A stretch of DNA of 64,000 nt from Candidatus Zixiibacteriota bacterium (lineage in GTDB: Bacteria; Zixibacteria; MSB-5A5; GN15; FEB-12): positions 303,976 to 367,975 of the forward strand of contig CP070777.1 of assembly GCA_020346225.1 (NCBI GenBank), written 5' to 3'. Position 1 is the stretch's first letter, and every line of letters begins with the position of its first letter. A program made the translations under genes and the position numbers. A model generated the notes under the pieces. It ran no database searches. It worked only from the letters and a program-made list of their open reading frames with translations, and was not told where the DNA came from. This document shows, one piece after another, positions 5,298 through 55,462 of this stretch.

Positions 5298-5317
5298 CTG
5301 ATCTTTGCATATTACCT

Positions 5318-7693: not shown

Positions 7694-7913
7694 AATAACC
7701 GAAGAGAACGGTCTTCCGATGGGGCGTATCGATTACTCCGGTACGGTAAATACCGCCTGCCTGGCCTATGTGCCCGAGGTTAAGATCGGCCAGTATGTTA
7801 TTGTTCACGCCGGGTTCGCCCTGAGCATCATCGACGAAGAGGAAGCGCGGAAAACGCTCGACCTGATGGGCGAGATGTTCCCGGGCGACTTGGGAGCGGG
7901 GGAAGAGAAGTGA
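7662..7913 (+). CDS. hypC: Hydrogenase maturation chaperone HypC/HupF
   Basis: GTG at 7662 yields the invariant N-terminus MCLAIPGKV. The ORF-track start at 7641 (TTG) would bury the essential Cys2. Confidence 0.9.
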
Positions 7914-9016
7914 AGTATCTCGACGAATTCCGCGACTTACTTCGTGCCCGACGTTTGCTCGACGATATAAAAGAGACAACGTCCCGGCCGTGCGTCATCA
8001 TGGAAGTCTGCGGTGGGCAGACCCACGCCATCGTGAAGAACGGCATAGATCGATTGCTGCCCGATAAAATAGAATTGGTCCACGGCCCCGGTTGTCCCGT
8101 CTGCGTCACACCGCTGGAACTGATCGACAAAGCGCTCGCTATTGCCTCGCGCCCCGGCGTGATATTCACCTCGTTTGGTGATATGCTCCGTGTCCCCGGT
8201 TCAAAGAAGGATCTGTTCACGGTCAAATCCGAGGGCGGCGACGTACGCATGGTGTATTCGCCCCTCGATGCGCTCAGGATAGCGCGAGAGAATCCTGCTA
8301 AGCAGGTCGTCTTTTTCGGGGTCGGCTTCGAAACCACCGCGCCTCTTACCGCGATGGCCGTCTGGCAGGCGCATCAGCAGCAGATCGACAACTTCTCAAT
8401 GCTGGTGGCCCATGTTCTTGTTCCGCCCGCCATAACGGCGCTGCTGAATTCCCCCGAAAACCGCATTCAGGCTTTCCTTGCGGCTGGGCATGTATGTACG
8501 GTCATGGGCTGGGAGGAATACATCCCGATAGCAGAAAAGTACCGGGTGCCCATTGTTGTCACCGGGTTCGAGCCGATTGACATACTCGAAGGCATCCTTA
8601 TGGCTGTGAGGCAGCTCGAAGACGGTCGGGCCGAGGTCGAGAATCAGTACGCGCGGGTCGTCAAACGCGAGGGTAACCGCCCGGCGCAGGAGCTGATAGC
8701 CCGCGTGTTTCAGGTCACCGGCCGCAAGTGGCGGGGGATAGGCGAGTTTCCGCAGAGCGGCCTGGTGCTGCGCCCGGAATTCGAAGCGCACGATGCTGAA
8801 AAGATATTCGAAATAGGCCAGATGAGGGTAGAAGAATCGCCCGAGTGCATCAGCGGTCTTATCCTGCAGGGTCTGAAAAAACCTCATGAATGCGGACAGT
8901 TTGGCTCTCGATGCACTCCTCAAAATCCGCTGGGGGCCACCATGGTGTCATCTGAGGGCGCCTGTGCCGCTTACTACGCTTATCATCGACACCGCACCGA
9001 CCACGTGGAGAACTGA
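7910..9016 (+). CDS. hypD: Hydrogenase maturation protein HypD
   Basis: GPGCPVCV motif. GTG start overlaps the hypC stop in a GTGA junction. Confidence 0.92.
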
Positions 9017-9019
9017 GAC

Positions 9020-10075
9020 ATGGCAAAGAAGATAAAGCCCGAAGACCTTACCTGCCCGCTTCCCATCACCGAGCATGACACCATTCAGCTGGCGCACGGC
9101 AGCGGCGGCAAAATGATGACCGACCTGATCAGCAGACTGTTCGTATGGGCTTTCGATAACCCGGCTCTGAACAAACAGGATGACCAGGCTGTGGTCGAAA
9201 TTGGCAAACAAAGGCTGTCTTTTACCACTGATTCATTCGTAGTTGACCCCATATTCTTTCCCGGCGGCGACATCGGCGAACTGGCCGTGTACGGCACGGT
9301 CAATGATATCTGCATGAACGGAGCCAGACCGCTGTACCTGTCGGTCGGGATGATTATCGAGGAAGGCATGCCGCTGGCGGACCTCGAGAAGATAGTCGTT
9401 TCGATGAAGCGGGCTGCCGAAGAAGCGGGGGTTGTGATAGTCACCGGCGATACCAAGGTCGTCAACAAGGGCAAAGGGGATAAGCTTTTCATCAATACCG
9501 CCGGGATAGGCATTCTGGAGCACGATTATACGATATCAGCCGACCAACTCAGACCCGGTGACAAAATACTCCTCAGCGGCACTATCGGCGACCACGGCAT
9601 AGCGGTACTGTCCAAGCGTGAGGGCCTTTCGTTCGAAACGCCCGTTGAAAGCGATACCTGCCCGCTCAATTCGCTCGTTGCGCAGATTCTCAAGGCGGGT
9701 CATGTCCACGCCATGCGTGACCCCACCCGCGGGGGCGTGGCCGCCACTCTAAACGAGTTCGCTCATGCTTCGGATGTCGGTATTCATATCCGCGAGGACC
9801 ATATCCCCGTCAAGCCGGCGGTGTCAGGGGCCTGCGAGGTTTTGGGTCTTGACCTCCTCTATGTTGCCAACGAAGGGAAGCTGATTGCTGCAGTTCCGCC
9901 GGATAAGGCTGAGGCTGTGCTTAGGGCAATGAAATCGCATCCCTTGGGCCAGGATGCCGCGATGATCGGCGAGGTCACGTCCGAGCAGCCGGGGATGGTG
10001 TCGATGACCACGAGAATCGGCGGCCGGCGCATCGTCGATATGCCGGTCGCCGAACAACTGCCGAGAATTTGTTAG
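9020..10075 (+). CDS. hypE: Hydrogenase maturation protein HypE
   Basis: PurM/AIR-synthase-like repeats. Conserved C-terminal PRIC. Confidence 0.92.
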   Translation: MAKKIKPEDLTCPLPITEHDTIQLAHGSGGKMMTDLISRLFVWAFDNPALNKQDDQAVVEIGKQRLSFTTDSFVVDPIFFPGGDIGELAVYGTVNDICMNGARPLYLSVGMIIEEGMPLADLEKIVVSMKRAAEEAGVVIVTGDTKVVNKGKGDKLFINTAGIGILEHDYTISADQLRPGDKILLSGTIGDHGIAVLSKREGLSFETPVESDTCPLNSLVAQILKAGHVHAMRDPTRGGVAATLNEFAHASDVGIHIREDHIPVKPAVSGACEVLGLDLLYVANEGKLIAAVPPDKAEAVLRAMKSHPLGQDAAMIGEVTSEQPGMVSMTTRIGGRRIVDMPVAEQLPRIC

Positions 10076-10078
10076 CCC

Positions 10079-12967
10079 TTACCAGGCCGCCGCGGAAATC
10101 TCATCGGCCCTGATTACATACACATCCCATCCGCCGCTTCCGTAAGATTGCGTGCCGCCGGCGATGGCGAAACTGTTATCCGAGGTCAGAGCGACCGAAT
10201 AACCGATGTCGGCTTCGGCCCCGCCCATAAGGTAGTACCAGAGCAGATAGCCGTAGCTGTCGGTCTTGACCACGTATACATCGGACGGTTCGGTGTCGCC
10301 GCTGTGGGAAAAGCCTGTCATCAAGAACCCATCATCCGACGCCGGGGCCAGTGAGTTGGCCTCATCCAGCCACGGCCCGCCCAGATCTGTCCGCTGCCAC
10401 ACCTGGCTGCCACCGCCGTCGGTTTTGATCAGGAAGGCATCCTCCGGAGTGCTCCCGGCCATCACCAGCGAACCGTCCTCCAGCGCCACGAGCGAATAGG
10501 CGCAGTCATCGCCGGTGGTGAGAGCAAACACCTCATCCCAGACGAGAGTGCCGCTACCGTCGACCTTGACCAGCCAGACATCCCTGGCAACAGCTCCAAA
10601 CGACCTTGTATAACCGGCGAGGGCGTACCCGCCGTCGGTAGTCTTCACCACGGTGTAAGCCCGGTCGGAACCGCTCCCGCCGTATGTCCGGGTCCACAGC
10701 GTGTCCCCGTTTTCATCGGTCTTGATGAGATAGAAATCGCATATGCCGCCGCTCCAGGAGCGCGCCCTTCCGCCAATGATATACCCGCCATCGGCAGTCT
10801 GAAGAACGCTCCTGCCGCGGTCGTCGAGGCTCCCGCCGAAGGTTTTCTCCCAGGTCAGGGTCCCGTTGGCGTCGGTTTTAACCAGATAAACGTCGCCTTC
10901 ACCTTCGCCTGACGAGAACGTGTAACCGACCACGGCAAAGCCGCCATCCTCGGTGGCTATGACCGAGTGCCCGCAGTCATCGGCCGCTCCGCCGAACGTC
11001 TCTTCCCACACGACGCTCCCGGATGCGTTGAGCTTGGCAAGGTATACGTCGCTGCCGCCCGCGCCGGAGGACTCGGTTGAACCGGCAATGACCAGCCCGC
11101 CATCACCGGTCGGGACTACTGAATATCCAATATCGTCGCTGGCCCCGCCCGCGTCGTATTCGGCGGTCACGAGCGTAACCGGGAAACAGTTGCCTTCGGC
11201 TATCATGGTTTCGTCACGGAACACTTCGGCCGAATAATCGGCTACGTTTACGTCGTATACACCGCCGGTAATGTCGACCGCACCGGCCACGCTGGAATAA
11301 AGGCTCCAGGAGCAGGACGGTTCAGACGCGACCTGGCCGTGGAGCTGAAGATTGCGCTCAGCCTCCAACCTTGCCGCTGAATATGAATAAGGTGTGAACT
11401 CTATGATCGGCTTGATTATGACCCTGGCCCGCATGTCGCCGAATTCGGCCCATGCTGACGGGCGGGGAACATCGTCGCCGGTGTGACCACCCTCCGGCGC
11501 CCAGCTGTTGTCCTGGTATTGGCAGCCGATCCATATGTTGCTGGAGCTCTCCGCGCCGAAGGCGACCTCGCCGCTTACCTCGGATTCCAGTTCCACCGTC
11601 GCCACGAATCTGAGGCTGGCTTCTAACCACACTGGAAACCAGTCCAGAAGCTGAATCCCGACCCCTGAGAAGCTCGCCAGCTCCAGCGGCGGCGTTTGCT
11701 GAAGAGTCACGGGCCCGTCGGTTTCCACGGTGAAATCACAGTTGACCGACAGGTCCCCTGTGGTCCGAGCCACAAACTCCGTCAGGCTGCCGCCGTCGAA
11801 AACTGCATTGCTTAGAACGTGCGGCTCGAATGTCATCTCACCCTGCGGAATCGACGCCGACACGGTCGCGGAGCCGAGCGTCCCTGAGTATAGGCTCACA
11901 TCCTCGAATCTTATTCGGCCCTCCTCGATATATACGCCATCCGGGACGTTCACCGTCGTCGTGGTTGATTTGTCGGCGCCAAACGGCATAATGAGAAACG
12001 TCAGTGATGTATGGCAGGTGCCGGTGGTGATGGCCTCGACGAGTGAGGCTGGTCCCGTCTCGACCGAGACCTGGCCGGCGGAGTATGTCGATGAAACGAC
12101 TTTCCTCAGGTAACCTGACGGCTCGGTGCCAACCACTATCCTGCCGGGTTCCAACATTGGCTGGCGCCCGCTGAAACTGAAGGTGTAAGTGGAACCGGTG
12201 GCGCCTATTAATGAGACACCCTCCAGCTCGTCAATCACAATCACGCCCTCGCCAAGGAGTACCCCTGTCTCGGTGACCGCCGGGCCTATCGCATAGGAGC
12301 CAGCAGGTTCGCTCAGAACGCTGTCACGGTAATCCTCAAACCGGAAATAATACTGATGCTGACCGTTGCCCAATGCTGTCTCGTAGCGATAAAGGCTTCC
12401 TGTCAGGGGTTCTCCCGATACGTGGGTCATGGCATGGGCCTCGCCGTTGACGAAAACCTCTGCCTTGGCCGGTTGATTTCCGGTCGGATCACGGAACGTC
12501 ACCTCGTATGTAAAGGTCTCGCCGTCATTGCCGCTTCCCGGAGTCACCTTGCCGGCGTTCAGAAAAGCCGTGTGGACGGTGACAAGGGCCAGCGTGTCCT
12601 CCGCCGAGGCCCGTCCGTCCGACACCACCACCACGATACTGACGGTGGCGCTGGTGTCCGGCGCCATCCATTCCACGCAGCTGGAATCATCGATGTTGAA
12701 CGAGCCGACGTTGGCCGACCACGTGGACGTAAGCGGGTCGTTGTCGGCGTCAGTCGCCGTGCACGTCAGAGTCAGCGGCTGCCCGGCCGGAATACGGCTG
12801 TACAGCTCCGGGGGCAAGACATAAGACCCCTGTTTAACTTCTATCCCTGAAATGACAGGCGGGTTATTGGGCGCGACCGGGTTGTCATCCTTGCCGCAGC
12901 TAAGAATCAGCGCTGCGACAGACAGGCAGATTGCCGCCGTAATCAGCCGATGATGCCGAAACTTCAT
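10079..12967 (-). CDS. 962-aa surface lipoprotein: Ig/PKD-like N-terminal domains, unknown central region, C-terminal seven-repeat beta-propeller
   Basis: Signal peptide with lipobox (ALILSC). DADNDPL Ig/PKD-like segment. Seven ~50-aa repeats W..(T)(F/Y)GG...D.G.SV..T.DGG....G.T.S.G.G..D(V/F)(Y/W)L(V/I)K(T/V)D..G... in the last ~360 aa. SD GGGAGG before the ATG. Confidence 0.8.
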   Translation of the reverse strand: MKFRHHRLITAAICLSVAALILSCGKDDNPVAPNNPPVISGIEVKQGSYVLPPELYSRIPAGQPLTLTCTATDADNDPLTSTWSANVGSFNIDDSSCVEWMAPDTSATVSIVVVVSDGRASAEDTLALVTVHTAFLNAGKVTPGSGNDGETFTYEVTFRDPTGNQPAKAEVFVNGEAHAMTHVSGEPLTGSLYRYETALGNGQHQYYFRFEDYRDSVLSEPAGSYAIGPAVTETGVLLGEGVIVIDELEGVSLIGATGSTYTFSFSGRQPMLEPGRIVVGTEPSGYLRKVVSSTYSAGQVSVETGPASLVEAITTGTCHTSLTFLIMPFGADKSTTTTVNVPDGVYIEEGRIRFEDVSLYSGTLGSATVSASIPQGEMTFEPHVLSNAVFDGGSLTEFVARTTGDLSVNCDFTVETDGPVTLQQTPPLELASFSGVGIQLLDWFPVWLEASLRFVATVELESEVSGEVAFGAESSSNIWIGCQYQDNSWAPEGGHTGDDVPRPSAWAEFGDMRARVIIKPIIEFTPYSYSAARLEAERNLQLHGQVASEPSCSWSLYSSVAGAVDITGGVYDVNVADYSAEVFRDETMIAEGNCFPVTLVTAEYDAGGASDDIGYSVVPTGDGGLVIAGSTESSGAGGSDVYLAKLNASGSVVWEETFGGAADDCGHSVIATEDGGFAVVGYTFSSGEGEGDVYLVKTDANGTLTWEKTFGGSLDDRGRSVLQTADGGYIIGGRARSWSGGICDFYLIKTDENGDTLWTRTYGGSGSDRAYTVVKTTDGGYALAGYTRSFGAVARDVWLVKVDGSGTLVWDEVFALTTGDDCAYSLVALEDGSLVMAGSTPEDAFLIKTDGGGSQVWQRTDLGGPWLDEANSLAPASDDGFLMTGFSHSGDTEPSDVYVVKTDSYGYLLWYYLMGGAEADIGYSVALTSDNSFAIAGGTQSYGSGGWDVYVIRADEISAAAW

Positions 12968-13132: not shown

Positions 13133-14350
13133 CTATTCCTGCTGCACCCCGCTGTCGTCCGTTTTGATCAGCCAGACGTCCTTCATATAGCTGGTGCCAT
13201 AGGAACCGATAGCGCCGGTGATTACATAGCCGCCGTCGGGGGCACATGCGATGTCATTGCCGTAGTCCGACATGCTTCCGCCGTATGTCTGTTGCCACTG
13301 CATGTTTCCACCGGCATCAGTCTTAATCAGAAAGGCATCCGGGGCCTCTTCTCCCGGAATGGTTGTATAGCCGGTTATAGCATAGCCGCCATCGGGGCAG
13401 CAGACAACGGACTCGCCGACATTGTTCTCTTCGTCGCCATAAACCTGTCGCCAGACGACATAACCGTCGGCGTCGAACCTGGTCAGGCATATGTCATACC
13501 CGTAACCCGTGGAGCCGCCGCAAAGACCTGCGACGACGAATCCGTCATCAGAGGTACACTTGATCGAAACGCCGAAATCACGATCGGTGTCGCTCATCCT
13601 TTCCCACAGAAGATTCCCCTCGTGGTCGGTTTTCAGCGTAAGCAGGCACAGCCTGTCATCGCTCCACACGTGAGCGGTGCCCGTGATGATAAACCCACCA
13701 TCGGGCGCAACGGTTACATCGTGGCATGTATAGGAGGCGCTGTCACCTCCCCTATAAAATTCCCACCACGGAACGTCACCCGAGAGGTCCATCCCGATGA
13801 GACTGGCTTTGTAGCCAACGGTGTCATCGTAGCAACTTCCTCCGATCACCAGCCCGTCCTCCCCGGTTAACACCACCGTATAATGGCTGCCCCAGCCGCT
13901 TTCAAACAGTCTCTTCCACACAGTTTTCCCGGATGCATCGGTTCTGATCACCCAGATGTACGGCACCGGCTGGTCGTCAACCGACTTCGATTTACCCGCA
14001 ATCACGAACCCGCCGTCGGATGTCTGAATCAGCGTGTGTCCCTCATCGCCCGCCGCTCCGCCGAAGGTACGCTGCCACTCGAGGTTGCCGGCGGCGTCAA
14101 TCTTCAGCAGATAAACATCGCTGTCCCCCGCGCCGAATGAGCTGGTTGCCCCGACCACGGCATAGCCGCCGTCATCTGTGGTGATTACGGATTCGCCCGT
14201 ATCGTCCTCGGCCCCGCCGTAGATCCATCTGGCATCGTACACCGGCTGGAAACTAACCGGACTTTTGCGCTCGTTGTAGCATCCGGCCACCCACAATAAT
14301 ATTAGGACGGTCACGCCCCCCAGAACTCTGAAGTAAAGCTTAGAATTCAA
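13133..14350 (-). CDS. 405-aa lipoprotein made almost entirely of the same seven-repeat beta-propeller unit
   Basis: Lipobox LWVAGC. Seven tandem repeats of the motif seen in 10079..12967 (for example WQRTFGGAAGDEGHTLIQTSDGGFVIAG, DVWLIKTDDSG). Confidence 0.8.
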   Translation of the reverse strand: MNSKLYFRVLGGVTVLILLWVAGCYNERKSPVSFQPVYDARWIYGGAEDDTGESVITTDDGGYAVVGATSSFGAGDSDVYLLKIDAAGNLEWQRTFGGAAGDEGHTLIQTSDGGFVIAGKSKSVDDQPVPYIWVIRTDASGKTVWKRLFESGWGSHYTVVLTGEDGLVIGGSCYDDTVGYKASLIGMDLSGDVPWWEFYRGGDSASYTCHDVTVAPDGGFIITGTAHVWSDDRLCLLTLKTDHEGNLLWERMSDTDRDFGVSIKCTSDDGFVVAGLCGGSTGYGYDICLTRFDADGYVVWRQVYGDEENNVGESVVCCPDGGYAITGYTTIPGEEAPDAFLIKTDAGGNMQWQQTYGGSMSDYGNDIACAPDGGYVITGAIGSYGTSYMKDVWLIKTDDSGVQQE

Positions 14351-35729: not shown

Positions 35730-38700
35730 CTACTTCAGAAGAACCATCTTCTTCGTCACGGCTCGGTCACCCGCCGTTAGCCGGTATAGATATATCCCCG
35801 AAGCTACCCGCTCGCCCCGGCTGTCGGTGCCGCGCCAATCGATACGATGTGCTCCCGCCGGTAGCCGCTCCCGGTCAACAAGGGTGTTCACTCTTTGTCC
35901 GAGGATATTGAATATCTCCAGAGTCACGTTGGCGGCCGCCGGTAACTCAAAGCAAATTACCGTGCCGGGATTGAACGGGTTCGGGTAATTCTGTCGCAGC
36001 GTGAATTCTCCCGGCAGAGATAATGTCTCACCCGGCGGCGCGTCGGTCGGCACTCCCTGAAATATCTGACTCACCAGTTCGCGGGCGGCGTCCAGCTCCA
36101 TATACCACAGGTGGAAACCGAATATGTAAGTCTCGGTGCTGTCGGTCTTCAGCGTGGCGGCGACAGTGTAGCCGTCGATCCGCGATGTCTCCGGATATAT
36201 TGAGGTGTAGCTATAGAGCGGTTGCGCCCCGGCGCCGGTAGCGAAGCATGCCACTGCCGGCGGGGTGGCATCCTGCCAGTAAGCTGTCACGTAGGCAGTA
36301 AACGGCTGGCGCGCGATGTCGAAAGCGATGGCGGGCAGGGTGCCGACGAGCGGCTGCGCCGAGCCGAAGCCGAAGCAGGAATCGTAGTTCAGCGGCAGCG
36401 AGTTATACAGATAGTACCGGTGGTGGTAGAAATACAGTGAATCCACCCCGAAGTACGGTTGAATGAACCAGTCGTTCTGACGGTAGTACTGGCCCACATT
36501 GGCTTCGAAGAAGTTCATGCCCTTGAATTCTCCGAAATACGCCACCTTTCCGCCCGACAGCAGATATTTTTCAAAGCGGTGATACTTGCTTTCCGACGAG
36601 GTCTTGAGCATGCCGTCGTAATCCTCGCCGTCGACAATGACCATTTCGTACCGGGTAAGGTCCCGCCAGTCCATGCAATACTCGTCCATCGTGGGATCAC
36701 AACTGTTCACGATAATCGTATCCTTGTAACAGTACACGTCGATATCGAGGTCAAGGCCGGACCGCAGGCCGTCGTAGAAATCCATCACCGTGTCCGGATG
36801 TGCGAGAACACCGTTGCCGAGCTGCGTGATAAGCAGAATGTCACGGGTTGTCTCATACACCTCGCAGGCCTGTACCGCCGATGAGAACTCGGATTCGAAA
36901 CCCTCTTTGTCCACGGCGGTAATAACGTAGGAGGCGTCGTTGAGCGGTTCCGTGTCTTCAAAAACGTAGGTCCCGGAGTCGACCGAGGCGAACGGATCCA
37001 TGGCGAAGTAGTAGCAGGTTATGCTGTCCTCGGTTATCTTAAAACTGTCTTTCGGAACGAGGGGCGGGTCGGGTATCGTATAACTGTAAAAAGGTTTGTA
37101 GAGCAACGATATCCCCTCGATGCTGTCGGCCCGGTATATGTTGTAGTGGCTGAGGTCGGCCTCGGTGGAGTCGGTCCATGTCAGCGCCGCCGGTATACCC
37201 TGCGCGTAGTAGAGCCGCGACCCGTCAGGGACGGGCGCCGCCATGCGTCCACGCTGGGTGATGACGACTCGCTCGCCGCTCAGTGCACCGGTGCCGCCGG
37301 AGAGTCGATGAGCGGCGGCGGCAAAGTAGAACTTGTGTGGGTCGAGGCCGGTAAGAGCGCAGGAGGCTGTTTTGCCTACCGAAGCGGCCGGTTCGAAATC
37401 TTGCGGCTCCAGCCACGGCGGCACCAGGCCGGGGTAGGGGAGAGTATCCTCGGGAACCTCAGAGAGAAAAATATCGTACCCGTCATAATTGTCAAAAACC
37501 CAGGGATCCCAGACCACCACGACCGAATCCCAGTCCTCAAACGCACCTTCCAGTCCGGTGACGGGTCGAACCGGATCCCGCAGGATCACGGATAACTCCT
37601 CAGCGCGGCCGGCATTGGCGAGGACGTCGCTAAAATCGAGATTGGCCAGATAGCCCGTGGGATTATCAGGAAGGTTGAGAGGGTTCCACGTCAACCAGTG
37701 AACGTGGTCCGCTGTGAACATGGCGAAGATCAGCCTGATGCTCGAGTCCGGCGCCAGCTCGAACGGCCCGTAAGACATCAGGAACTTGGTATCGCAGCCG
37801 TCGGTATAATCTTCAGCTTTGGACTGCGGGGGATACATCCATACCGGGTCATCGGGCTCGATGCTGGCCGTGAAAACCTGGTCGTAATCCCACTCTGGGT
37901 GGCTGAGCATGTAATATTTGTTGGTGTCGCCTGTTGGAGTGCCCAAACCGTTGGTTTCAAAATCGAAGAACGGGTCATCAGGAGTGCCCAGCAGTCGCGG
38001 GCCGAAGTCCCACTCCGCGTAAGTACTGCTCGTCCACCAGTTGAAGTTGGTATCGGCTATAGCGTGAGACGAGGCCAGCAACCTGAAGGCAAAAATCTTC
38101 TCCAGGCTGGTGGCCGGGTCGAACTCGTACCCATCCGGGTCGCCGTCATTGTCGATTAGGTAGCCTATCCCGTGTTCTCTTATTGAACCGCTGATATCGT
38201 CCTGGTACCCGAAAGGTGAAGTAATCAGCAGCACATCGCCGTCCATATAGAACCCTATATAGCACTCGCTGATATCCTGTGTGCCGATGTTCGATATGAC
38301 CATGTCATAGGCAACGATGTCTTCGTAAGTATCGTTTCGCCAGACGTGGCTCCTCAGGACTATCTTGACGTTCAGCGGCACGTGAGGCACAAGGGTGAAG
38401 GGGTCTATATACTCCGCTGTATCCGTATATACGGCGCGCATGGAGTAGTCCGAGAATCCCTCCAACCCGGTGACCGAGCCTATCGGATAATTCGGCGGAG
38501 AGAACTCCTCTCCGGAGGTGCTCCATCCATCCCATCCTGTAGAAACCAGAGTGTCGCTTCCGATTCGACCACCCACCCAGAGCGCGCTTGTAAATAAGTA
38601 ATCTTTGCCGCTATAAGACGGTGTACGGAAACCGGCCTGCGGCCAGCCGTAGTCTGGATACCCGTATGTGCCGTTGTAACTGGCAAACCTGCCGAAGCAA

Positions 38701-38927
38701 TCAAAAGAGGTATTGACCATACCGGTTTGCTGGACACCGTAGGGGACTGGACAGGGGATATCCGGGTCGTCCATCAACGAACCCGTCTGGTCTACCCACA
38801 CCACCGACGGCGTTGCCGGAGCTGCCGCCTTCTCTTCGTCGTAAAGCAGTGAGCGACCCTGGACCGGCGCAGCCCATGCCGCAATAGCAAGCAACAAACT
38901 CCCCGTACCCATGACTCGTGAAAACAT
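35730..38927 (-). CDS. 1065-aa secreted protein of unknown function with a T9SS (Por) type-A C-terminal sorting domain; paralogue B
   Basis: Signal peptide (LLLAIAAWAAPVQG). Large N-terminal module, Fn3-like middle, alpha/beta-like module. C-terminal LRQNYPNPFNP...LEIFNILGQRV...GIYLYRL...KKMVLLK. Confidence 0.85.
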   Translation of the reverse strand: MFSRVMGTGSLLLAIAAWAAPVQGRSLLYDEEKAAAPATPSVVWVDQTGSLMDDPDIPCPVPYGVQQTGMVNTSFDCFGRFASYNGTYGYPDYGWPQAGFRTPSYSGKDYLFTSALWVGGRIGSDTLVSTGWDGWSTSGEEFSPPNYPIGSVTGLEGFSDYSMRAVYTDTAEYIDPFTLVPHVPLNVKIVLRSHVWRNDTYEDIVAYDMVISNIGTQDISECYIGFYMDGDVLLITSPFGYQDDISGSIREHGIGYLIDNDGDPDGYEFDPATSLEKIFAFRLLASSHAIADTNFNWWTSSTYAEWDFGPRLLGTPDDPFFDFETNGLGTPTGDTNKYYMLSHPEWDYDQVFTASIEPDDPVWMYPPQSKAEDYTDGCDTKFLMSYGPFELAPDSSIRLIFAMFTADHVHWLTWNPLNLPDNPTGYLANLDFSDVLANAGRAEELSVILRDPVRPVTGLEGAFEDWDSVVVVWDPWVFDNYDGYDIFLSEVPEDTLPYPGLVPPWLEPQDFEPAASVGKTASCALTGLDPHKFYFAAAAHRLSGGTGALSGERVVITQRGRMAAPVPDGSRLYYAQGIPAALTWTDSTEADLSHYNIYRADSIEGISLLYKPFYSYTIPDPPLVPKDSFKITEDSITCYYFAMDPFASVDSGTYVFEDTEPLNDASYVITAVDKEGFESEFSSAVQACEVYETTRDILLITQLGNGVLAHPDTVMDFYDGLRSGLDLDIDVYCYKDTIIVNSCDPTMDEYCMDWRDLTRYEMVIVDGEDYDGMLKTSSESKYHRFEKYLLSGGKVAYFGEFKGMNFFEANVGQYYRQNDWFIQPYFGVDSLYFYHHRYYLYNSLPLNYDSCFGFGSAQPLVGTLPAIAFDIARQPFTAYVTAYWQDATPPAVACFATGAGAQPLYSYTSIYPETSRIDGYTVAATLKTDSTETYIFGFHLWYMELDAARELVSQIFQGVPTDAPPGETLSLPGEFTLRQNYPNPFNPGTVICFELPAAANVTLEIFNILGQRVNTLVDRERLPAGAHRIDWRGTDSRGERVASGIYLYRLTAGDRAVTKKMVLLK

Positions 38928-39155: not shown

Positions 39156-42100
39156 CTATCTGACCAGCATCATCTTCCGGCTGTAATGGTTCTGACCGTA
39201 CCGGATCCGGTAGAAGTAGATACCCGACGAGACCGGGCGGCCATCAGGGGCCGTGCCGTTCCACTCCGCCACGTGTGTGCCGGCCTCCAGGGGGACTCCG
39301 TCGAGGAGCACCCTTACCCGCCTGCCCAGGATATTGAATATTTCCAGTGTAACCTCGCCGGCGCGCGGCAGGTCGAAGGTAATTCTCGTGGCCGGATTGA
39401 AAGGATTGGGATAGTTCTGTCGCAGGGCAAACCGGGCGGGCAGGGCGGCCGGAGCGGCATCCCGTTCGTCGGTCGGCGATCCCTCGAACAGATAGTCCAC
39501 CAGTTCCCGGGCCGACTCCCGCTCGATGTACCACAGGTGAAACCCGAAGAGGTAGGTTTCGAACTCGCCTGTCGTCAGCCTGACACCGACTGGGTCGCCC
39601 TCGAGCCGGCTGCTCACGGGATAACGCGAGCGGTACCGGTAAAGCAACTCGGCGTTATCGTTAACATGGAAAGTCGATACGGAGGGCGGCGTTTGGTCCT
39701 GCCACAGGTTCCGGACAAACGGGCTGATCGCCCCGCCCAGACTGTCGAAAGCCAGGACCGGCAGGTCGGCGGCGCACGGCTCGGCTGCGGCGAACCCGAA
39801 ACAGGTATCACTGTCGATCGGCAACTCGTTATAGAAGTAATAACGATAATGCTGGAAATACAGCGAGTCGATCCCGAAAAATCGATTCACAAACCAGTCG
39901 TTCTGGAGGTAGTAACAGGACTCGTAGCCGTCAAAGTAGTTCATGCCGTTAAGGCAGCCGAAATAGGCCAGCCGGCCGCCCGAAAGCAGGTACTTGGCGA
40001 ATGTATGAACGTTCTCTTCCGCCTTCTGCGTCATCAGATTGTCGTATTTTTCACCGTCGAAAATCGTCAGCCTGAACCGCGTGAAATCGGCCCAGTTGAT
40101 GCATCCCGGCTGACTCGGATCGCAATAATAGTCCGCCACCGTATCGAGGACGCTGTAGACGGCGTAGTCGTAGTCGGCCAGTACGGATTCATAAAATGCC
40201 CGAACCGAATCGTACACGCCAAAGTAACTGTTGCCCAGATTCGTGATCAGCAGGATATCCCGCGTTTGAGGATATACCTCCAGCAGTTGAAGCGGGGAAG
40301 AGAACTCGGATTCAAACCCTTCCTCGTCCGTCACCGTGAGAACGTAATATTCCCCGTTAGTCGGAGAGACGACCTCGAAAGCGTTGACGTCCGGCTCCAC
40401 CGTGACGTAGGGCTCCATGGCATAATAGTAATAGGTGTCGTCACCTATATAGAAGGTATCTGCCGGCTCGATGGCCTCACCGGGGGCCGTCTTGGTGTAA
40501 AACGGACGGTACATGTCCTGAAGCGCCTCTTCGTCGGGGAACCGGTACAGAGTGTAATGGTCGACTTCACAACCTGTCGCGTCTTCCCACTGAATGGTCA
40601 CCGTCTCGCCGCTGATGAAGTACTCGTAGTCTTCCTGTACAACCGGTGGCTCGAGGCGGCCTCTTTGTACCGCGCATTCCGGCTCGCTCAACTGGCCGAT
40701 ACCGGCCTGTGACCGTGGCGCTATGCTCAGAAAATAAAACTTGCCGGGGTCGAGATTGTCCAACTTATGCCGGTAGGTCGGGCCGACTGAGGCTATCGGC
40801 CCCAGGTTGGCCGGCTGATACCAGGGGGGTACCAGCCCGGGGTAGGGCAACGAGTCCTCCGGAATCTCGGCCAGGTAAATGTCGTAGCCCTCCACCTCGC
40901 TGAACGTGAAGGGGTCCCATTCGATTACCACGGAATCCCAGCTTTCGGTCACCACTTCCAGACCGGTCGCCGGAAGCATGGGGTTCAGCAGCGAGTCGGC
41001 CAGCGCTCCCGCCCGTGCAATGTTCGCGATCAACCCGTCAAAATTGAGATTCCGAACGTACCCCAGAGGATTATCCGGCAGATTATAGATGTTCCAGATT
41101 AACTCGTGGACCTCGTCAGCCGTGGACATGGCATACAGAACCCGCACACTTGAGTCGGGAGCAATGTCGAATGGGCCGAACGACAGGACTATTTTGACGT
41201 CGTACCCGTCAGCCAGATCGGCCGCCATGTCCTGGGGAGGATAACACCACTGCGGGTCATCGGGCGGAATTATCGCCGTGAGCACCTGGTCGTAATCCCA
41301 CTCGCGATGCTTAAGAAGATAGTACTTGTTGCGGTCGCCCTCGGGAGTCCCCAGTGTGCCCGTTTGGAAGTCGAAAAACGGGTCCTCCGATGTGCCGAGC
41401 TGACGCGGCCCGAAGTCGACGTTGACGCCAAATCTGTTTACCCACCAGTTGAAGTTGGTGTCTTGGACGGGTTGTGACGCCGCCAGCAGAGACAGCGCCA
41501 GCACCTTGCGCACGCTGGTGGTGGAGTCGTAATCGCCCCCTACCGGGTCACCGTCGGCGTCAATGACATACGCTATACCTTGATCCCGGAGCCCGCCGGC
41601 GACGTCATCGGTCCAGAAATAGTCCTTACTCTCGTGACCAACGTCGCCATCGACGTATATTCCGATGTATCCCTGCTCGATATCCTGACTCCCCAAGTTC
41701 GTCATTACCAGGTCGTAAATCACAAAATCCTGATACTCGGGTGCCCGCCAGATGTGGCTCCGGTTGACCACGCGCAGATTCAGCGGCACATGGGGTCGCC
41801 CGAAAAAGTCGCGCTCGACATACTGCGTGATCGTGTCGGTGAAGATGGCCCGCATCGCCTCGTCGGAGGGGTAATCGAACCCGGTCACCGACCCGTAGGG
41901 ATGAGTCGGGGGGAAAAACTCGCGACCGACTATGTACCCCCAGCCGTTAAGACCGTGCGATACCAGTGTGTCGCCGCCGACAACCCCGCCGATCCAGAGG
42001 GCCCCCATCCACAGGTACTCTTTGCCGCTTCCGGGCGGTGTCTCGAAGGAAGCGGACGGCCAGTCCGGAATGGAGGGATACCAGGGCGTCGCCCCCATGC

Positions 42101-42335
42101 CGAATAAGCCGTAACAGTCGAAGGAGACGTCCACTGAACCCGTTTGCTGAACACCGTACTTGGTGGGCCAGGGGATGTCAGCGTCGTCGAGCGGGTCCCG
42201 GACGCTGGCCTCGTCAATGCTGCTATCATCGAGCCGCGTTATGTCCAGCGGCGAGCGCGCCGCCCCCTGGCCGCCAGTAAATACCAAGAGTAAGGGGATT
42301 ATACAGTACCGACCAACCGCTCCCGGCAAGCTCAC
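39156..42335 (-). CDS. 1059-aa secreted protein of unknown function with a T9SS (Por) type-A C-terminal sorting domain; paralogue A
   Basis: Collinear with 35730..38927. C-terminal LRQNYPNPFNP...LEIFNILGRRV...GIYFYRI...RKMMLVR. The GTG at 42335 sits directly on the SD GGGAGG, so the TTG at 42329 (5-nt spacing) may be the real start. Confidence 0.85.
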   Translation of the reverse strand: MSLPGAVGRYCIIPLLLVFTGGQGAARSPLDITRLDDSSIDEASVRDPLDDADIPWPTKYGVQQTGSVDVSFDCYGLFGMGATPWYPSIPDWPSASFETPPGSGKEYLWMGALWIGGVVGGDTLVSHGLNGWGYIVGREFFPPTHPYGSVTGFDYPSDEAMRAIFTDTITQYVERDFFGRPHVPLNLRVVNRSHIWRAPEYQDFVIYDLVMTNLGSQDIEQGYIGIYVDGDVGHESKDYFWTDDVAGGLRDQGIAYVIDADGDPVGGDYDSTTSVRKVLALSLLAASQPVQDTNFNWWVNRFGVNVDFGPRQLGTSEDPFFDFQTGTLGTPEGDRNKYYLLKHREWDYDQVLTAIIPPDDPQWCYPPQDMAADLADGYDVKIVLSFGPFDIAPDSSVRVLYAMSTADEVHELIWNIYNLPDNPLGYVRNLNFDGLIANIARAGALADSLLNPMLPATGLEVVTESWDSVVIEWDPFTFSEVEGYDIYLAEIPEDSLPYPGLVPPWYQPANLGPIASVGPTYRHKLDNLDPGKFYFLSIAPRSQAGIGQLSEPECAVQRGRLEPPVVQEDYEYFISGETVTIQWEDATGCEVDHYTLYRFPDEEALQDMYRPFYTKTAPGEAIEPADTFYIGDDTYYYYAMEPYVTVEPDVNAFEVVSPTNGEYYVLTVTDEEGFESEFSSPLQLLEVYPQTRDILLITNLGNSYFGVYDSVRAFYESVLADYDYAVYSVLDTVADYYCDPSQPGCINWADFTRFRLTIFDGEKYDNLMTQKAEENVHTFAKYLLSGGRLAYFGCLNGMNYFDGYESCYYLQNDWFVNRFFGIDSLYFQHYRYYFYNELPIDSDTCFGFAAAEPCAADLPVLAFDSLGGAISPFVRNLWQDQTPPSVSTFHVNDNAELLYRYRSRYPVSSRLEGDPVGVRLTTGEFETYLFGFHLWYIERESARELVDYLFEGSPTDERDAAPAALPARFALRQNYPNPFNPATRITFDLPRAGEVTLEIFNILGRRVRVLLDGVPLEAGTHVAEWNGTAPDGRPVSSGIYFYRIRYGQNHYSRKMMLVR

Positions 42336-50536: not shown

Positions 50537-50671
50537 ATTAAATCTCTTATCCTCATGAGAATATACCGTAACAACTAATAAAGACAACAACTTTAAACAG
50601 GGAAGCCAGCGGAGCAACAATGAAGTATAAAATGCTTGCTAAAACTCAGGGGTCAGCGTTCATTTAGCGTC

Positions 50672-53600
50672 ATGTCGGGGTTGTCTACATCGCTCGGGAT
50701 AGATATCGGCTCGGTTTCCGTTAAGCTCGTTCTCCTTGAAAACGACCGAGTCGTGCGAACTGCCTATCGTCGCTTTCACGGGAGGCCTTTCGAAACCCTG
50801 TGTCAACTTCTCAATGAACAGTTTCGGGACCTCGACGGTTCTTCGCTCAACCTCGGTTTCACCGGTATCGGCGGCAAAACGGCCCGGCGCGTGCTCGGCG
50901 GGAAATTCTTCGGCGAGATCGCCTCGATAGCTGCGGGCAACTTTCACAGCGTGCCGCAGGCCAGGACTATCATCGAGATGGGCGGCGAGGATTCGAAACT
51001 CATCGTGGTCGATTCCCCTACCCGGACCGTCAGGGACTTCGCCATGAACGCGCAGTGTGCCGCGGGCACCGGCTCGTTTCTGGACCAGCAGGCCGCCCGG
51101 CTCAAGATCTCTATCGAGGGTGAGTTCGGCCGGCTGGCTTTAAAGTCTCAAAAGCCCCCGCGGATTGCCGGGCGTTGTTCCGTCTTCGCCAAATCTGACA
51201 TGATTCATCTCCAGCAGATCGCTGCACCGGACTATGATATAGTCGCAGGCCTGTGCTTCGCCGTGGCCCGAAACTTCAAAAGCTCTATTGCCCGGGCCAA
51301 GAAGTTCGAACCGCCCATCGTATTTGAAGGCGGCGTGGCCGCCAACCCGGGCATGGTTCGCGCCTTTGCCGAGATACTCGGGCTGACCGATGGACAGCTG
51401 CAGGTCCCCGAACACTACAACGTCATTGGGGCGCTCGGCGCCGCCGTTCTGGCCGGCGAAAACTCAACCCTGGTCGAATCCTTCGACAGCGAAAAAATTC
51501 GAAGCTATCTGGATTACCGGCAGGTGGTTGCCTCCGGCCGCGAAGCGCTGTCTTTCGATTTTCCGGACTCGAAATACTATGATATAACCATGGCTGACAG
51601 GCCCGCCGATATCGACGATCTGGAGGTTTATCTGGGGGTCGATGTCGGCTCCCTCTCCACCAACCTCGTTCTCATTGACGCTGACCATCGCGTGATCGCC
51701 CGTCGTTACCTCATGACCGAGGGACGTCCCATCGAGGCGGTCCGGCGGGGCCTTCGGGAAATCAGCGAAGAGGTGGGCGACCGGGTAACCGTGAAAGCGG
51801 TCGGCTCCACCGGTTCCGGTCGCTATCTCATCGGTGACCTGATCGGAGCCGATGTGATCCGCAACGAGATTACGGCTCAGGCCACTGCGGCCATCGATAT
51901 CGATCCCGAGGTCGATACCGTCTTTGAAATAGGCGGGCAGGATTCCAAGTACATTTCCATAGACAAGCGGGCGGTCGTTGATTTCGAGATGAACAAGGCC
52001 TGTGCCGCCGGCACCGGGTCCTTCCTGCAGGAGCAGGCCGAGAAGCTCAACGTCAACATAGAAACCGAGTTCAGCGATCGCGCCCTTTGCGCCACCTGCC
52101 CGGTGGGATGCGGCGAGCGCTGCACGGTGTTCATGGAATCCGATCTGGTGGCTCACCAGCGCTCCGGCGCCAGCAAGGATGACCTGTTGGCCGGACTGGC
52201 TTACTCCATAGTCAGCAACTACTTGACAAAGGTTGTCGGAGACCGGCGCGTGGGTGATCATATCTTCTTTCAGGGCGGCGTTGCCTGGAATAAAGCGGTC
52301 GTGGCTGCCTTTGAAAAGATGACGGGCAAGCATGTAACGGTGCCGCCGCATCACGACGTCACCGGTGCTATCGGCGCCGCCATCCTGGCTAAGGAACAAA
52401 TCGATCAACCCGGCTTCGAAACCTCCTTCAAGGGTTTCGATTTTCATAAACGGCGTTATGAACTAGAATCGTTCACGTGCGAAGACTGCGCCAACCAGTG
52501 TGAAATCCACAAGGTGATTCTCGAAGGCGAGGAGCCGCTGTACTATGGCTCGCGGTGTGAGCGATACGAGGTCGACCGCCGCCAGGGGCGGGACCTCCCG
52601 ACGGACTACGCCGCCGTCAGGAAGCGTCTTTTATTCAAGCGCTATTTGGAGCCGGCCGTGGTATCCGGATCAAAAGGAAGGGTCGGTATTCCAAGGGTTC
52701 TTCATTTCTTCGATTATTATCCCTTCTGGCGGGCTTTCTTCGAATCGGCCGGTTTCAAGGTGGTCAACTCCGATGTCTCCAACCAGAAGATAGTGGAAAA
52801 CTCGCTGGAGCTTTTCAGCGCCGAAACCTGCTACCCCATCAAAATCGTCTTCGGTCACGTTGGCAACCTCCTTGACAAAGGCGTCGATTGGCTGTTTCTC
52901 CCGTCCCTCATAAAAGTTGCCGATCAGCAGGAGTTGGCTGAGGAAGGCGCCTATATTTGCCCCTATGTGCAGACCATCGGGTCGACCATTGCCACGTCCT
53001 TCGATTTTGCTGCCGCCGGAGCGAAACTCGTCAACCGGCCCATCAACCTGAGCCAGAATGTCGGTGACTTGCGCCACAAGCTGAAGGGCCTGGCTTCTGA
53101 TTTCGGCCTGTCCGACCGGGAATACAATCGCGCTATCGACGCCGGCCTGAAAGCGTATCAAACCTACCGGCTGGCCTTGCGCGACGAAGGCCGAAAGGTG
53201 CTCGGCCGGCTCGGTCCCGACGAGAAGGCGCTGGTGATAGTCAGCCGCCCCTATAACGGCTACGACCCGAGGTTGTCGCTGGAGCTGCCCGATAAAATAC
53301 GTGAACTCGGCGTGAAATCCATTCCTCTCGACTTTCTGGATACCGGCAATGGCAGCGACGTACCGTTCATGTACTGGCGCTACGGACGCCGCATCCTGTC
53401 GGCCGCCAAGTATATCCGAGAGCATCCCAACCTTTTTGCCGTCTATATCACCTCTTTTGGCTGTGGCCCGGACTCGTTCATTACCCATTTTTTCCGCAAG
53501 GCGATGTCCGGCAAACCCTATCTTCAGCTCGAACTGGACGAACATTCTGCCGACGCCGGTCTGATAACCCGGTCCGAGGCGTTTATCGATTCGCTCCGGT

Positions 53601-54892
53601 TCTACCGGTTCAAGGTGCCAGTAAGCGGCTTCAATATCGCCTGCGATGATTTCCGGCCGTTCGAAAGAACCATTTACATACCGAACATGTGCGACCACGC
53701 CTACGCGTTGCGCGGCGCTTTTGAACGATGCGGACTCAGGGCTGAGGTTCTGGATGAACCCGATGATCTGACCCTGGAATACGGCAAGAAATTTACTTCC
53801 GGCAAGGAGTGTTTCCCCTGTGTTATCACCACCGGAGACATGATCAAGAAGATCAAATCACCGCACTTCGATACCTCCCGGGCGGTGTTCTTTATGCCCG
53901 GCGCCAACGGTCCCTGCCGGTTCGGTCTGTACAGCCAGTTTCACCGGATGATTCTCGACGACCTGGGCTACACCGATATCCCTATCTACTCGCCGAACTC
54001 CGACAACGGCTACGCCGACTTCGGTCTCGACGGCACCGCGTTCCGCAAGATTGCGTGGAAGGGATTTGTCTTCGTGGACTGTCTTCAGAAGCTGTTGTTC
54101 GGCATCCGACCCTATGAAATCAACGAGGGCGAGACCGAGAAAGTATATCTCAAATATCTGGCCCGACTTGACCGCGCCCTGGTTCACGACGAATCGCTGG
54201 ATCGCCTTGGCCGCGAAGCGGCAGCAGCTTTCGCCGCAATAGAAAGGGAGCCCTCGGTGCGCCCGCGTGTAGGTGTGGTGGGGGAGATCTATCTCAGGAA
54301 TAACCGGTTCTCGAATAATCATCTGATTGAAACACTGGAGAAACTCGGCCTTGAAGTGTGGCTGGCCACCTTCACCGAATGGCCGCTGTATACGTCGTGG
54401 AGTTATCAGAAAGACTCCATCTCGCAATTCAACCTCAAGGGTCTGGTCGAGAGTTCCCTGCAGCTTGTTTTCCAGCGTCGGCAGGAACATCGTATCGCCC
54501 GCGCCTTCAGCCGCGATAAACACTTCTGGAGTGACTATCCCGTTGAGAAGGTTCTCAAGCTGGCCTCGGCGTACCTGCCTTTGGATTTCAAGGGCGAGGC
54601 GGTGCTGTCCATCGGAAAAGCCATTGAGATGACTATTGAGGGCGCCGGCGGCATTGTCAACGCAATGCCTTTTAACTGCATGCCGGGTACGGTCGTGTCC
54701 TCCCTGTCGAAGAGGATTTCCGAAGATTACGGCGATATCCCGTGGCTCAACATTTCCTATGAAGGTTTGCGAGACTCCGGCGAGGAAACGCGACTTGAGG
54801 CTTTTGCCGATCAGGCCCGCGCCTACCAGCGCAGCCGCAGCCGTCAAACGACCGCCGAAGCCACCCTGCTGCTGAAAGAGCAGCAAAAGTGA
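50672..54892 (+). CDS. Fusion protein: two BcrA/BadF/HgdC-type activase ATPase domains plus a DUF2229/2-hydroxyacyl-CoA-dehydratase-like C-terminal module
   Basis: Two acetate/sugar-kinase-fold ATPase domains (LGIDIGSVSVK and LGVDVGSLSTN). Each has the cluster-ligand pattern N(A/K).CAAGTGSFL plus RC(S/T)VF. CEDCANQC..GSRCERY Cys block, then GIPRVLHFFDYYPFWRAFFESAGFKVV. ATG 50672 chosen. Confidence 0.88.
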   Translation: MSGLSTSLGIDIGSVSVKLVLLENDRVVRTAYRRFHGRPFETLCQLLNEQFRDLDGSSLNLGFTGIGGKTARRVLGGKFFGEIASIAAGNFHSVPQARTIIEMGGEDSKLIVVDSPTRTVRDFAMNAQCAAGTGSFLDQQAARLKISIEGEFGRLALKSQKPPRIAGRCSVFAKSDMIHLQQIAAPDYDIVAGLCFAVARNFKSSIARAKKFEPPIVFEGGVAANPGMVRAFAEILGLTDGQLQVPEHYNVIGALGAAVLAGENSTLVESFDSEKIRSYLDYRQVVASGREALSFDFPDSKYYDITMADRPADIDDLEVYLGVDVGSLSTNLVLIDADHRVIARRYLMTEGRPIEAVRRGLREISEEVGDRVTVKAVGSTGSGRYLIGDLIGADVIRNEITAQATAAIDIDPEVDTVFEIGGQDSKYISIDKRAVVDFEMNKACAAGTGSFLQEQAEKLNVNIETEFSDRALCATCPVGCGERCTVFMESDLVAHQRSGASKDDLLAGLAYSIVSNYLTKVVGDRRVGDHIFFQGGVAWNKAVVAAFEKMTGKHVTVPPHHDVTGAIGAAILAKEQIDQPGFETSFKGFDFHKRRYELESFTCEDCANQCEIHKVILEGEEPLYYGSRCERYEVDRRQGRDLPTDYAAVRKRLLFKRYLEPAVVSGSKGRVGIPRVLHFFDYYPFWRAFFESAGFKVVNSDVSNQKIVENSLELFSAETCYPIKIVFGHVGNLLDKGVDWLFLPSLIKVADQQELAEEGAYICPYVQTIGSTIATSFDFAAAGAKLVNRPINLSQNVGDLRHKLKGLASDFGLSDREYNRAIDAGLKAYQTYRLALRDEGRKVLGRLGPDEKALVIVSRPYNGYDPRLSLELPDKIRELGVKSIPLDFLDTGNGSDVPFMYWRYGRRILSAAKYIREHPNLFAVYITSFGCGPDSFITHFFRKAMSGKPYLQLELDEHSADAGLITRSEAFIDSLRFYRFKVPVSGFNIACDDFRPFERTIYIPNMCDHAYALRGAFERCGLRAEVLDEPDDLTLEYGKKFTSGKECFPCVITTGDMIKKIKSPHFDTSRAVFFMPGANGPCRFGLYSQFHRMILDDLGYTDIPIYSPNSDNGYADFGLDGTAFRKIAWKGFVFVDCLQKLLFGIRPYEINEGETEKVYLKYLARLDRALVHDESLDRLGREAAAAFAAIEREPSVRPRVGVVGEIYLRNNRFSNNHLIETLEKLGLEVWLATFTEWPLYTSWSYQKDSISQFNLKGLVESSLQLVFQRRQEHRIARAFSRDKHFWSDYPVEKVLKLASAYLPLDFKGEAVLSIGKAIEMTIEGAGGIVNAMPFNCMPGTVVSSLSKRISEDYGDIPWLNISYEGLRDSGEETRLEAFADQARAYQRSRSRQTTAEATLLLKEQQK

Positions 54893-55080: not shown

Positions 55081-55407
55081 ATGAGTAAGCCGCTCAACAT
55101 CACTGATGATACTTTCGAACAGGAAGTTCTCCAGTCCGATATACCGGTTATTGTCGACTTCTGGGCAACCTGGTGTGGCCCCTGTAAAATGATCGCTCCC
55201 ATTCTCGAAGAAGTGGCCGCGGAATATGCCAATAAGATCAAGGTGGTCAAACTGGACGTTGATGCTAACAACAAGACGGCCGGGAAGTACAATATTATGT
55301 CCATCCCGTCGCTGCTCTTCTTCAAGGGTGGCGAGATGGTCGATCAGGTGGTAGGCGCCATCCCCAAAGCTCAACTGACTTCCCGCCTCGATAAGGTCCT
55401 GGCGTAG
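55081..55407 (+). CDS. trxA: Thioredoxin
   Basis: WATWCGPCK active site. ATG 55081 preceded by GGAGG. Confidence 0.93.
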   Translation: MSKPLNITDDTFEQEVLQSDIPVIVDFWATWCGPCKMIAPILEEVAAEYANKIKVVKLDVDANNKTAGKYNIMSIPSLLFFKGGEMVDQVVGAIPKAQLTSRLDKVLA

Positions 55408-55430: not shown

Positions 55431-55462
55431 AGGGCCGGCTTTGATTGAAGCCGGCCCTTTTA
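55431..55462 (+). terminator. Intrinsic terminator after trxA
   Basis: AGGGCCGGCTT (55431-55441), 6-nt loop, AAGCCGGCCCT (55448-55458), followed by TTTACGTTT. Confidence 0.75.

Follow-up and report, generated by a model that had tools for sequence, protein, structure and literature searches.

The 64-kb window analysed here is the whole stretch of 64,000 nucleotides from a Candidatus Zixiibacteriota bacterium (contig CP070777.1, positions 303,976 to 367,975). It carries a gene on the plus strand (50672..54892) that probably encodes a soluble, oxygen-sensitive and ATP-driven iron–sulfur reductase of the PlsA/Ger family, predicted to convert a lipid ester to an ether. Public records give the protein and its numerous orthologs in Zixibacteria no name beyond 'CoA activase' or 'acyl-CoA dehydratase activase'. 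PlsA/PlsR of Clostridium perfringens and the single-gene PlsA of Enterococcus faecalis (4,248 bp), Lactococcus cremoris and Bifidobacterium make plasmalogens (PMC12838417). The 'modified PlsA' proteins of Thermotoga maritima (Tmari_0479/AGL49404) and Desulfatibacillum alkenivorans (SHJ90043), named Ger, yield 1-O-alkyl glycerol ethers in Escherichia coli under anoxic conditions only (PMC13159169). In the shared architecture, PF01869 occurs twice and is joined by PF09989 and additional short D/H stretches; the fused form has about 1400 aa (PMC13159169, PMC12838417). A sequence-only reading had proposed this architecture, and a candidate ether-lipid enzyme, for the present gene. The domain order, the end-to-end homology, a complete set of 14 family cysteines and a PlsR-equivalent module support it. 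By every criterion testable in sequence, the protein belongs to the PlsA/Ger family, on the side outside the plasmalogen clade. Its features are as follows.

50672..54892, plus strand: fused PlsA/Ger-family protein, complete open reading frame (ORF) of 1406 aa plus stop (ORF and Pfam/NCBIfam; start backed by homolog N-termini).
50693..51457, plus strand: activase-type ATPase domain 1, residues 8-262, with cluster cysteines C129 and C169 (PF01869; alignment to MbdQ and HadI).
51632..52399, plus strand: activase-type ATPase domain 2, residues 321-576, with cluster cysteines C444 and C484 (PF01869; alignment to HgdC).
52478..52558, plus strand: Cys4 linker C603-x2-C606-x3-C610...C629, a small β-rich element (cysteine conservation and AlphaFold2 model).
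52661..53626, plus strand: reductase module 1 (DUF2229), residues 664-985, with C720, C763 and C931 (PF09989, E 1e-58; cysteines invariant).
53657..54841, plus strand: reductase module 2 (PlsR-equivalent), residues 996-1390, with C1047, C1082 and C1336 (hhalign).

The ORF is intact and without interruption, in agreement with the single-polypeptide fusion of about 1400 aa described earlier. With the ATG at 50672, LGIDIGS, the first conserved motif, lies 6-9 residues from the N-terminus; the same holds for ten homologs of 1395-1406 aa from Zixibacteria. The overall length range of Zixibacterial homologs (1395-1407 aa) is also consistent with this start. The NCBI model of the identical protein (P0001, 100% identity, on a 3.18-Mb contig) starts from a TTG at 50636, 12 codons upstream, and has 1418 aa. 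Its record name is 'MAG: CoA activase [Candidatus Zixiibacteriota bacterium]', where MAG denotes a metagenome-assembled genome. No transmembrane helix was found in the window protein, which fits a peripheral or soluble enzyme. From the N- to the C-terminus, two BcrAD_BadFG domains are followed by the Cys4 linker, the DUF2229 module and a homologous module that corresponds to PlsR. An alignment of 99 family members shows 14 cysteines conserved in at least 99% of them (four in the activase half, four in the linker, three in each reductase module), and the window protein has all 14. These are among 94 positions invariant across the PlsA-type clade and the rest of the family, and every one of the 94 is kept.

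The N-terminal half matches PF01869 (BcrAD_BadFG) twice, at residues 8-262 and 321-573 (E 9e-77), as well as the acyl-CoA dehydratase activase model TIGR00241 of NCBIfam (E 2e-95), confirming the two BcrA/BadF/HgdC-type ATPase domains proposed before. Domain 1 contains the motifs NAQCAAGTGSFL (C129) and GRCSVF (C169), and domain 2 contains NKACAAGTGSFL (C444) and ERCTVF (C484). In alignments to PDB sequences, C129 and C169 fall on the cysteine columns of MbdQ (9gai_D; domain 1 E 1e-31), the best activase match by sequence, and of HadI (4eht). C444 and C484 fall on the two cysteine columns of HgdC (1hux; domain 2 E 2e-30), in which the equivalent residues ligate the dimer-bridging [4Fe-4S] cluster. 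The cluster-cysteine pattern attributed to each ATPase domain is therefore present, and all four residues are invariant across the 99 family sequences. The two halves are 30-36% identical to HgdC, HadI and MbdQ. The AlphaFold2 model of residues 1-630 forms a single confident body (pLDDT 85.7, pTM 0.78), which fits an intramolecular pseudo-dimer of the activase domains.

Between the two halves, the translation contains the motif CEDCANQC...GSRCERY, which provides C603, C606, C610 and C629. The Cys-rich linker that had been singled out by the earlier reading is a family-wide feature, as its four cysteines are 99% conserved among the 99 family members, including those of the PlsA-type clade. The linker is modelled by AlphaFold2 as three short strands, at moderate confidence only.

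The C-terminal half had been described as one DUF2229/2-hydroxyacyl-CoA-dehydratase-like block. DUF2229 is indeed present (PF09989 at residues 670-888, following the activation domains, E 1e-58), but this half is made up of a homologous pair of modules rather than one block. They cover residues 664-985 and 996-1390 and align with each other by hhalign at 98.4% probability (E 4e-15). Their cysteines align pairwise, C720 with C1047, C763 with C1082 and C931 with C1336. By hhalign, module 1 matches a DUF2229 protein of Monoglobus (E 5e-53), whereas module 2 matches a 404-aa PlsR-like protein of Fusobacterium over its full length (probability 100%, E 2e-52) and a '2-hydroxyacyl-CoA dehydratase' of Monoglobus (E 2e-34). 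In Fusobacterium, a 975-aa activase plus DUF2229 gene is followed by the gene for the 404-aa protein, annotated '2-hydroxyacyl-CoA dehydratase'. We infer that this pair corresponds to the plsA-plsR split of C. perfringens, because its span approximates the 4,287-bp CPE1194-1195 region (PMC12838417).

The AlphaFold2 model of residues 590-1406 has a pLDDT of 84 and a pTM of 0.82. The only significant PDB fold matches of the C-terminal half are the class I benzoyl-CoA reductase (BCR) BzdNO (8s02_B), the double-cubane cluster protein (DCCP; 7yyl, best chain 7yyl_A, and 6eno) and the 2-hydroxyisocaproyl-CoA dehydratase HadBC (3o3o_A), with E values from 2.5e-5 to 2.6e-4. No solved relative of this half was found by a sequence-profile search against PDB sequences, in which 2-hydroxyacyl-CoA dehydratase (HAD), BCR and DCCP chains were not matched. 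In BzdNO, the [8Fe-9S] double cubane needs six cysteines per subunit, and three (Cys95/128/380) serve the catalytic [4Fe-4S]-OH2 cluster (PMC11971306). BzdN and DCCP thus differ from the window modules, which have three invariant cysteines each, and each module would accordingly be expected to hold a HAD-like 3-Cys cluster rather than a double cubane. Moreover, the cysteine spacing of module 2 (35 and 254) is near that of the catalytic cluster of BzdO (Cys95/128/380, PMC11971306).

These structural relations also bear on the function suggested by the public names, a classical 2-hydroxyacyl-CoA dehydratase fused to its activator and serving amino-acid fermentation. Like HgdAB/HgdC and HadBC/HadI, the window protein has an ATP-dependent activase with a putative Cys2+Cys2 bridging cluster and a heterodimer-like pair of homologous modules with one 3-Cys cluster site each. 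The identity of its activase halves to HgdC, HadI and MbdQ and the resemblance of its C-terminal fold to HadBC speak for a fermentation enzyme. In contrast to the classical enzymes, the activase is duplicated and fused, the modules are not matched by PF06050 (HGD-D), and an extra Cys4 linker is present. The dehydratases act on a CoA thioester, whereas the substrate here is presumed to be a membrane lipid ester. The C-terminal profile matches no HAD, BCR or DCCP chain in the PDB by sequence, and the pairing of DUF2229 with a PlsR-like module is the signature of PlsA/Ger proteins. No CoA-transferase or acyl-CoA genes were found among the scanned ORFs of the 64-kb window, in line with the earlier reading. 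On the missing PF06050 match and the gene context, a classical dehydratase fusion was rejected as a very improbable explanation. The DCCP type represented by E. coli YjiL/YjiM was likewise rejected. YjiM matches PF06050 at 5e-122, but the window protein does not, and it has three invariant cysteines per module; aligned by hhalign to its modules, YjiM gives marginal scores (E 1e-4 over 64 columns at best). The protein therefore does not group with YjiL/YjiM-type proteins, a placement that the earlier reading had regarded as fatal to its proposal.

The assignment to the PlsA/Ger family is reinforced by full-length homology. PlsA-type references were collected by tblastn of a plasmid collection that includes some mislabelled chromosomes. 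The PlsA-type protein of Listeria monocytogenes (1475 aa) matches end to end, over query residues 9-1365 (97% coverage, E 4e-138). In this species, the plsA/plsR orthologs are apparently active in anaerobic growth, and plasmalogens are reported (Goldfine review, PMC9702350). Further end-to-end matches, fused or split, come from Acetoanaerobium, Collinsella, Haliovirga, Fusobacterium and Subdoligranulum. The genes are split in Fusobacterium and Subdoligranulum, at the same point as the module boundary of the window protein. The domains are collinear with those of C. perfringens CPE1194-1195 and the fused proteins of E. faecalis, L. cremoris and Listeria, and all invariant cysteines are shared. 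The window gene has no adjacent TetR regulator, unlike the genes of Collinsella and E. faecalis. A variant of the same system, reordered and with one activase, occurs in Monoglobus pectinilyticus (L002 3010..6227). It is split into three genes, for a DUF2229 protein (329 aa), a PlsR-like protein (407 aa) and, last, a single activase (330 aa), and is 35% identical to the window protein.

The family is large, as an exhaustive search with the C-terminal half gave 1012 clusters (50% identity) at E <= 1e-30; among 150 diverse representatives, a few could be placed in Brocadiia, Bacteroidales, Aerophobetes and a 'delta' MAG. The window protein as protein-search query returned Zixibacteria-like matches only, and a genome scan with a clade-consensus query recovered 80 fused homologs of about 1400 aa. 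These 80 loci span Desulfobacterota, Nitrospirota (Thermodesulfovibrionia), Planctomycetota (Ca. Brocadia pituitae, Scalindua), Armatimonadota, Zixibacteria and Thermodesulfatator. MAGs supply nearly all of them and Ca. Brocadia pituitae the one complete genome, with no locus from T. maritima or D. alkenivorans. A Desulfobacterales homolog as query gave MAG matches only. A Thermodesulfatator homolog found Thermodesulfobacterium geofontis (P0453), isolates such as T. hydrogeniphilum and Thermosulfurimonas dismutans, and other Thermodesulfobacteria, and no Thermotoga.

In a neighbour-joining tree (53 sequences, 1341 columns, 200 bootstraps), six PlsA-type references of Firmicute, Actinobacterial and Fusobacterial origin form a clade with 100% bootstrap support, and the window protein lies outside. 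It belongs to a Zixibacterial lineage with 100% support, inside a large clade that contains T. geofontis, Ca. Brocadia pituitae, Scalindua, Desulfobacterota and Nitrospirota. Its identity is 44.5% to T. geofontis, 47.5% to Ca. Brocadia pituitae and 47-51% to Desulfobacterota, and only 27-30% to the PlsA-type references. In addition, 34 positions are near-fixed but different between the PlsA clade and the rest. At each of them the window protein agrees with the rest, although it was itself among the sequences that defined this second group.

In architecture, the window protein resembles Ger of T. maritima and D. alkenivorans as published. Both are single polypeptides of about 1400 aa from strict anaerobes, in which two PF01869 domains and PF09989 precede a PlsR-like part that scores weakly. 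The four organisms listed with a modified plsA, ether lipids and no plasmalogens include T. geofontis and the anammox Ca. Kuenenia (PMC8788747), and the window protein clusters with the T. geofontis and anammox homologs that the same authors group with Ger. The PF06050 fragments reported for Ger were undetected in the window protein, though they are precomputed for many close homologs.

This grouping with alkyl-ether lineages (Thermodesulfobacteria, anammox bacteria, sulfate reducers), and not with the clade of plasmalogen producers, inclines us modestly towards a saturated alkyl, Ger-like product. The lean reflects an association with lineages, not a sequence feature that decides the product. 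A strict plasmalogen synthase, which would stop at the 1-alk-1'-enyl (vinyl) ether like C. perfringens PlsA/PlsR or E. faecalis PlsA, has the same architecture and invariant residues. The vinyl ether is presumed to be an intermediate of Ger too (PMC8788747), and no Ger-specific motif is known, PlsA and Ger being not yet separable by sequence (PMC13274423). The low identity to the PlsA-type clade and its full bootstrap separation speak against such an enzyme, as do the nearest named relatives, which come from lineages described as alkyl-ether, non-plasmalogen producers. A second DUF2229 stretch, significant by Pfam in Listeria PlsA, is not significant in the window protein (E 0.017), a soft criterion (2026 sponge preprint). 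We regard a strict plasmalogen synthase as unlikely, though it is the strongest of the competing explanations.

For the favoured PlsA/Ger-type lipid reductase, a mechanism can be sketched in which the domain and cysteine assignments come from the alignments and the remaining steps are modelled on the BCR/HAD paradigm. The substrate would be the ester carbonyl of an already assembled membrane glycerophospholipid, reduced to an ether at the sn-1 position first. A low-potential donor such as ferredoxin or flavodoxin would reduce the [4Fe-4S] cluster held between the fused activase domains by C129/C169 and C444/C484. ATP binding and hydrolysis would then drive the electron onward, perhaps via the conserved Cys4 linker, to a pair of 3-Cys clusters, one in each reductase module. 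Reduction of the lipid ester carbonyl would take place at the open iron site of module 2 through a ketyl-type intermediate, and protonation and dehydration would give the 1-alk-1'-enyl ether. Enzymes of the Ger type would reduce this alkenyl ether further, to the saturated 1-O-alkyl ether.

Several points weigh against the assignment as a lipid ester reductase. The verified Ger proteins AGL49404 (T. maritima) and SHJ90043 (D. alkenivorans) are absent from the tree, and the cluster types and the role of the linker are deduced from cysteine counts. Gene neighbourhoods are uninformative on function, in Zixibacteria and elsewhere. Expression of D. alkenivorans Ger2, closely paralogous to a verified Ger, produced no ether lipids (PMC11150832), so that homology does not guarantee activity. 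The function of the window protein, like the lipids of Zixibacteria, is a prediction from sequence.

These considerations lead to another explanation, in which the protein is a reductase or dehydratase of the BCR/HAD superfamily whose substrate is not a lipid, or else a paralog without catalytic activity, as may be the case for Ger2, which was inactive in its sole test (PMC11150832). Only a handful of proteins have been assayed out of about 1000 clusters (50% identity) matching at E <= 1e-30. The gene contexts lack a lipid linkage, and in eight Desulfobacterota loci the gene is paired with an uncharacterised radical-SAM protein. However, all catalytic-looking residues are conserved with active family members, and the phyletic spread tracks strict anaerobes known for ether lipids. 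In the Zixibacterial loci examined, the gene seems to occupy one syntenic locus and does not look like a divergent duplicate. A non-lipid or silent protein is quite improbable in our view, though less so than a classical dehydratase.

The neighbourhood of the PlsA/Ger-like gene was compared among Zixibacterial genomes. The minus strand upstream carries dtd and maf, then a gene for a RodZ-like protein, a 198-aa ORF of no recognised family, and smc, so the gene is divergent from dtd-maf as previously read. The same reading had called it monocistronic, a claim that should be softened. A thioredoxin gene (trx; 55081..55407, plus strand, WCGPC) follows on that strand after 190 bp. The gap between them gave no terminator-like site, and a strong terminator-like hairpin is seen only past trx, at 55431-55458. 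Farther downstream are a rhomboid gene, genes for a response-regulator protein, DsbD_TM and DUF2064, and a creatininase-like gene. Elsewhere, the window includes hydrogenase maturation genes, ABC exporters, lgt, a PAP2 protein, nadE, lpxD, bamA, uvrB and ftsY.

The same gene order is found in Zixibacterial genomes whose orthologs are 77%, 68% and 63% identical; in one Zixibacterial genome, a DUF885 gene is inserted between the PlsA/Ger-like gene and trx. Orthologs within the phylum keep 62-100% identity and a fixed gene order, as would suit a housekeeping function in the membrane. The dtd/maf/trx order reflects conservation of the chromosomal backbone and not a functional operon, and the gene is a stable core gene of the lineage. 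A second Zixibacterial lineage of the gene (P0123, L017, L023, L030 and L041), about 49-54% identical to the first, does not share the dtd/maf/trx synteny.

No lipid-synthesis linkage was found in 134 neighbouring ORFs from the 80 related loci. The commonest neighbour is the uncharacterised radical-SAM protein of eight Desulfobacterota loci (L015, L019, L024, L026, L033, L052, L073 and L082, for example L082:3148-4068), out of nine radical-SAM neighbours overall. This protein of about 305-335 aa is encoded directly upstream on the same strand, ending about 100-150 nt before the Ger-like gene. It has a CxxxCxxC motif near the N-terminus and generic MoaA/PflA-like matches only, and it is absent from the window. 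The two genes may form a conserved two-gene unit in Desulfobacterota. In Ca. Brocadia pituitae (L062 2930..9036), the family scan located the Ger-like gene between leuC and leuD, which are normally an adjacent pair. The related anammox loci L056 and L068 have similarly sized flanking ORFs, leuC is also upstream in L069, and aconitase-family matches appear in the neighbour survey.

Two other parts of the window were noted. The adjacent minus-strand ORFs at 10079..12967 and 13133..14350 (962 and 405 aa) have no Pfam match at E <= 1e-5 and adjoin the hydrogenase-maturation genes hypF, hypD and hypE (5225..10075). Another two minus-strand ORFs of about 1060 aa, at 35730..38927 and 39156..42335, have C-terminal FlgD_ig or Por_Secre_tail (type IX secretion system sorting) domains and little else, and are probably secreted surface proteins.

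Reports of Ger homologs already cover many phyla, 'superphylum FCB' included (PMC13159169), and the identification is therefore unsurprising to a specialist and leaves the understanding of the PlsA/Ger enzyme family itself unchanged. What is new is the specific prediction for Zixibacteria, together with the core and syntenic status of the gene there. Zixibacteria are an uncultured phylum, common in anoxic sediments and aquifers. In the literature searched, we found neither a link of Zixibacteria to PlsA/Ger enzymes or ether lipids nor lipid data for the phylum. As the gene is core and syntenic, ether lipids are predicted in the phylum, and recognition of the PlsA/Ger protein turns this into a testable prediction of membrane chemistry. 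We put forward, as a tentative proposal that we consider slightly more doubtful than probable, that Zixibacterial membranes hold non-isoprenoid alkyl, possibly dialkyl, glycerol ethers, and that the family-wide Cys4 linker is an extra metal site without counterpart in the structurally solved BCR, HAD and DCCP proteins. The finding adds a well-populated lineage to the question of which bacteria make ether lipids in anoxic settings. Sedimentary alkyl-glycerol biomarkers are usually credited to sulfate reducers; if the prediction is true, Zixibacteria would be an unrecognised source of them.

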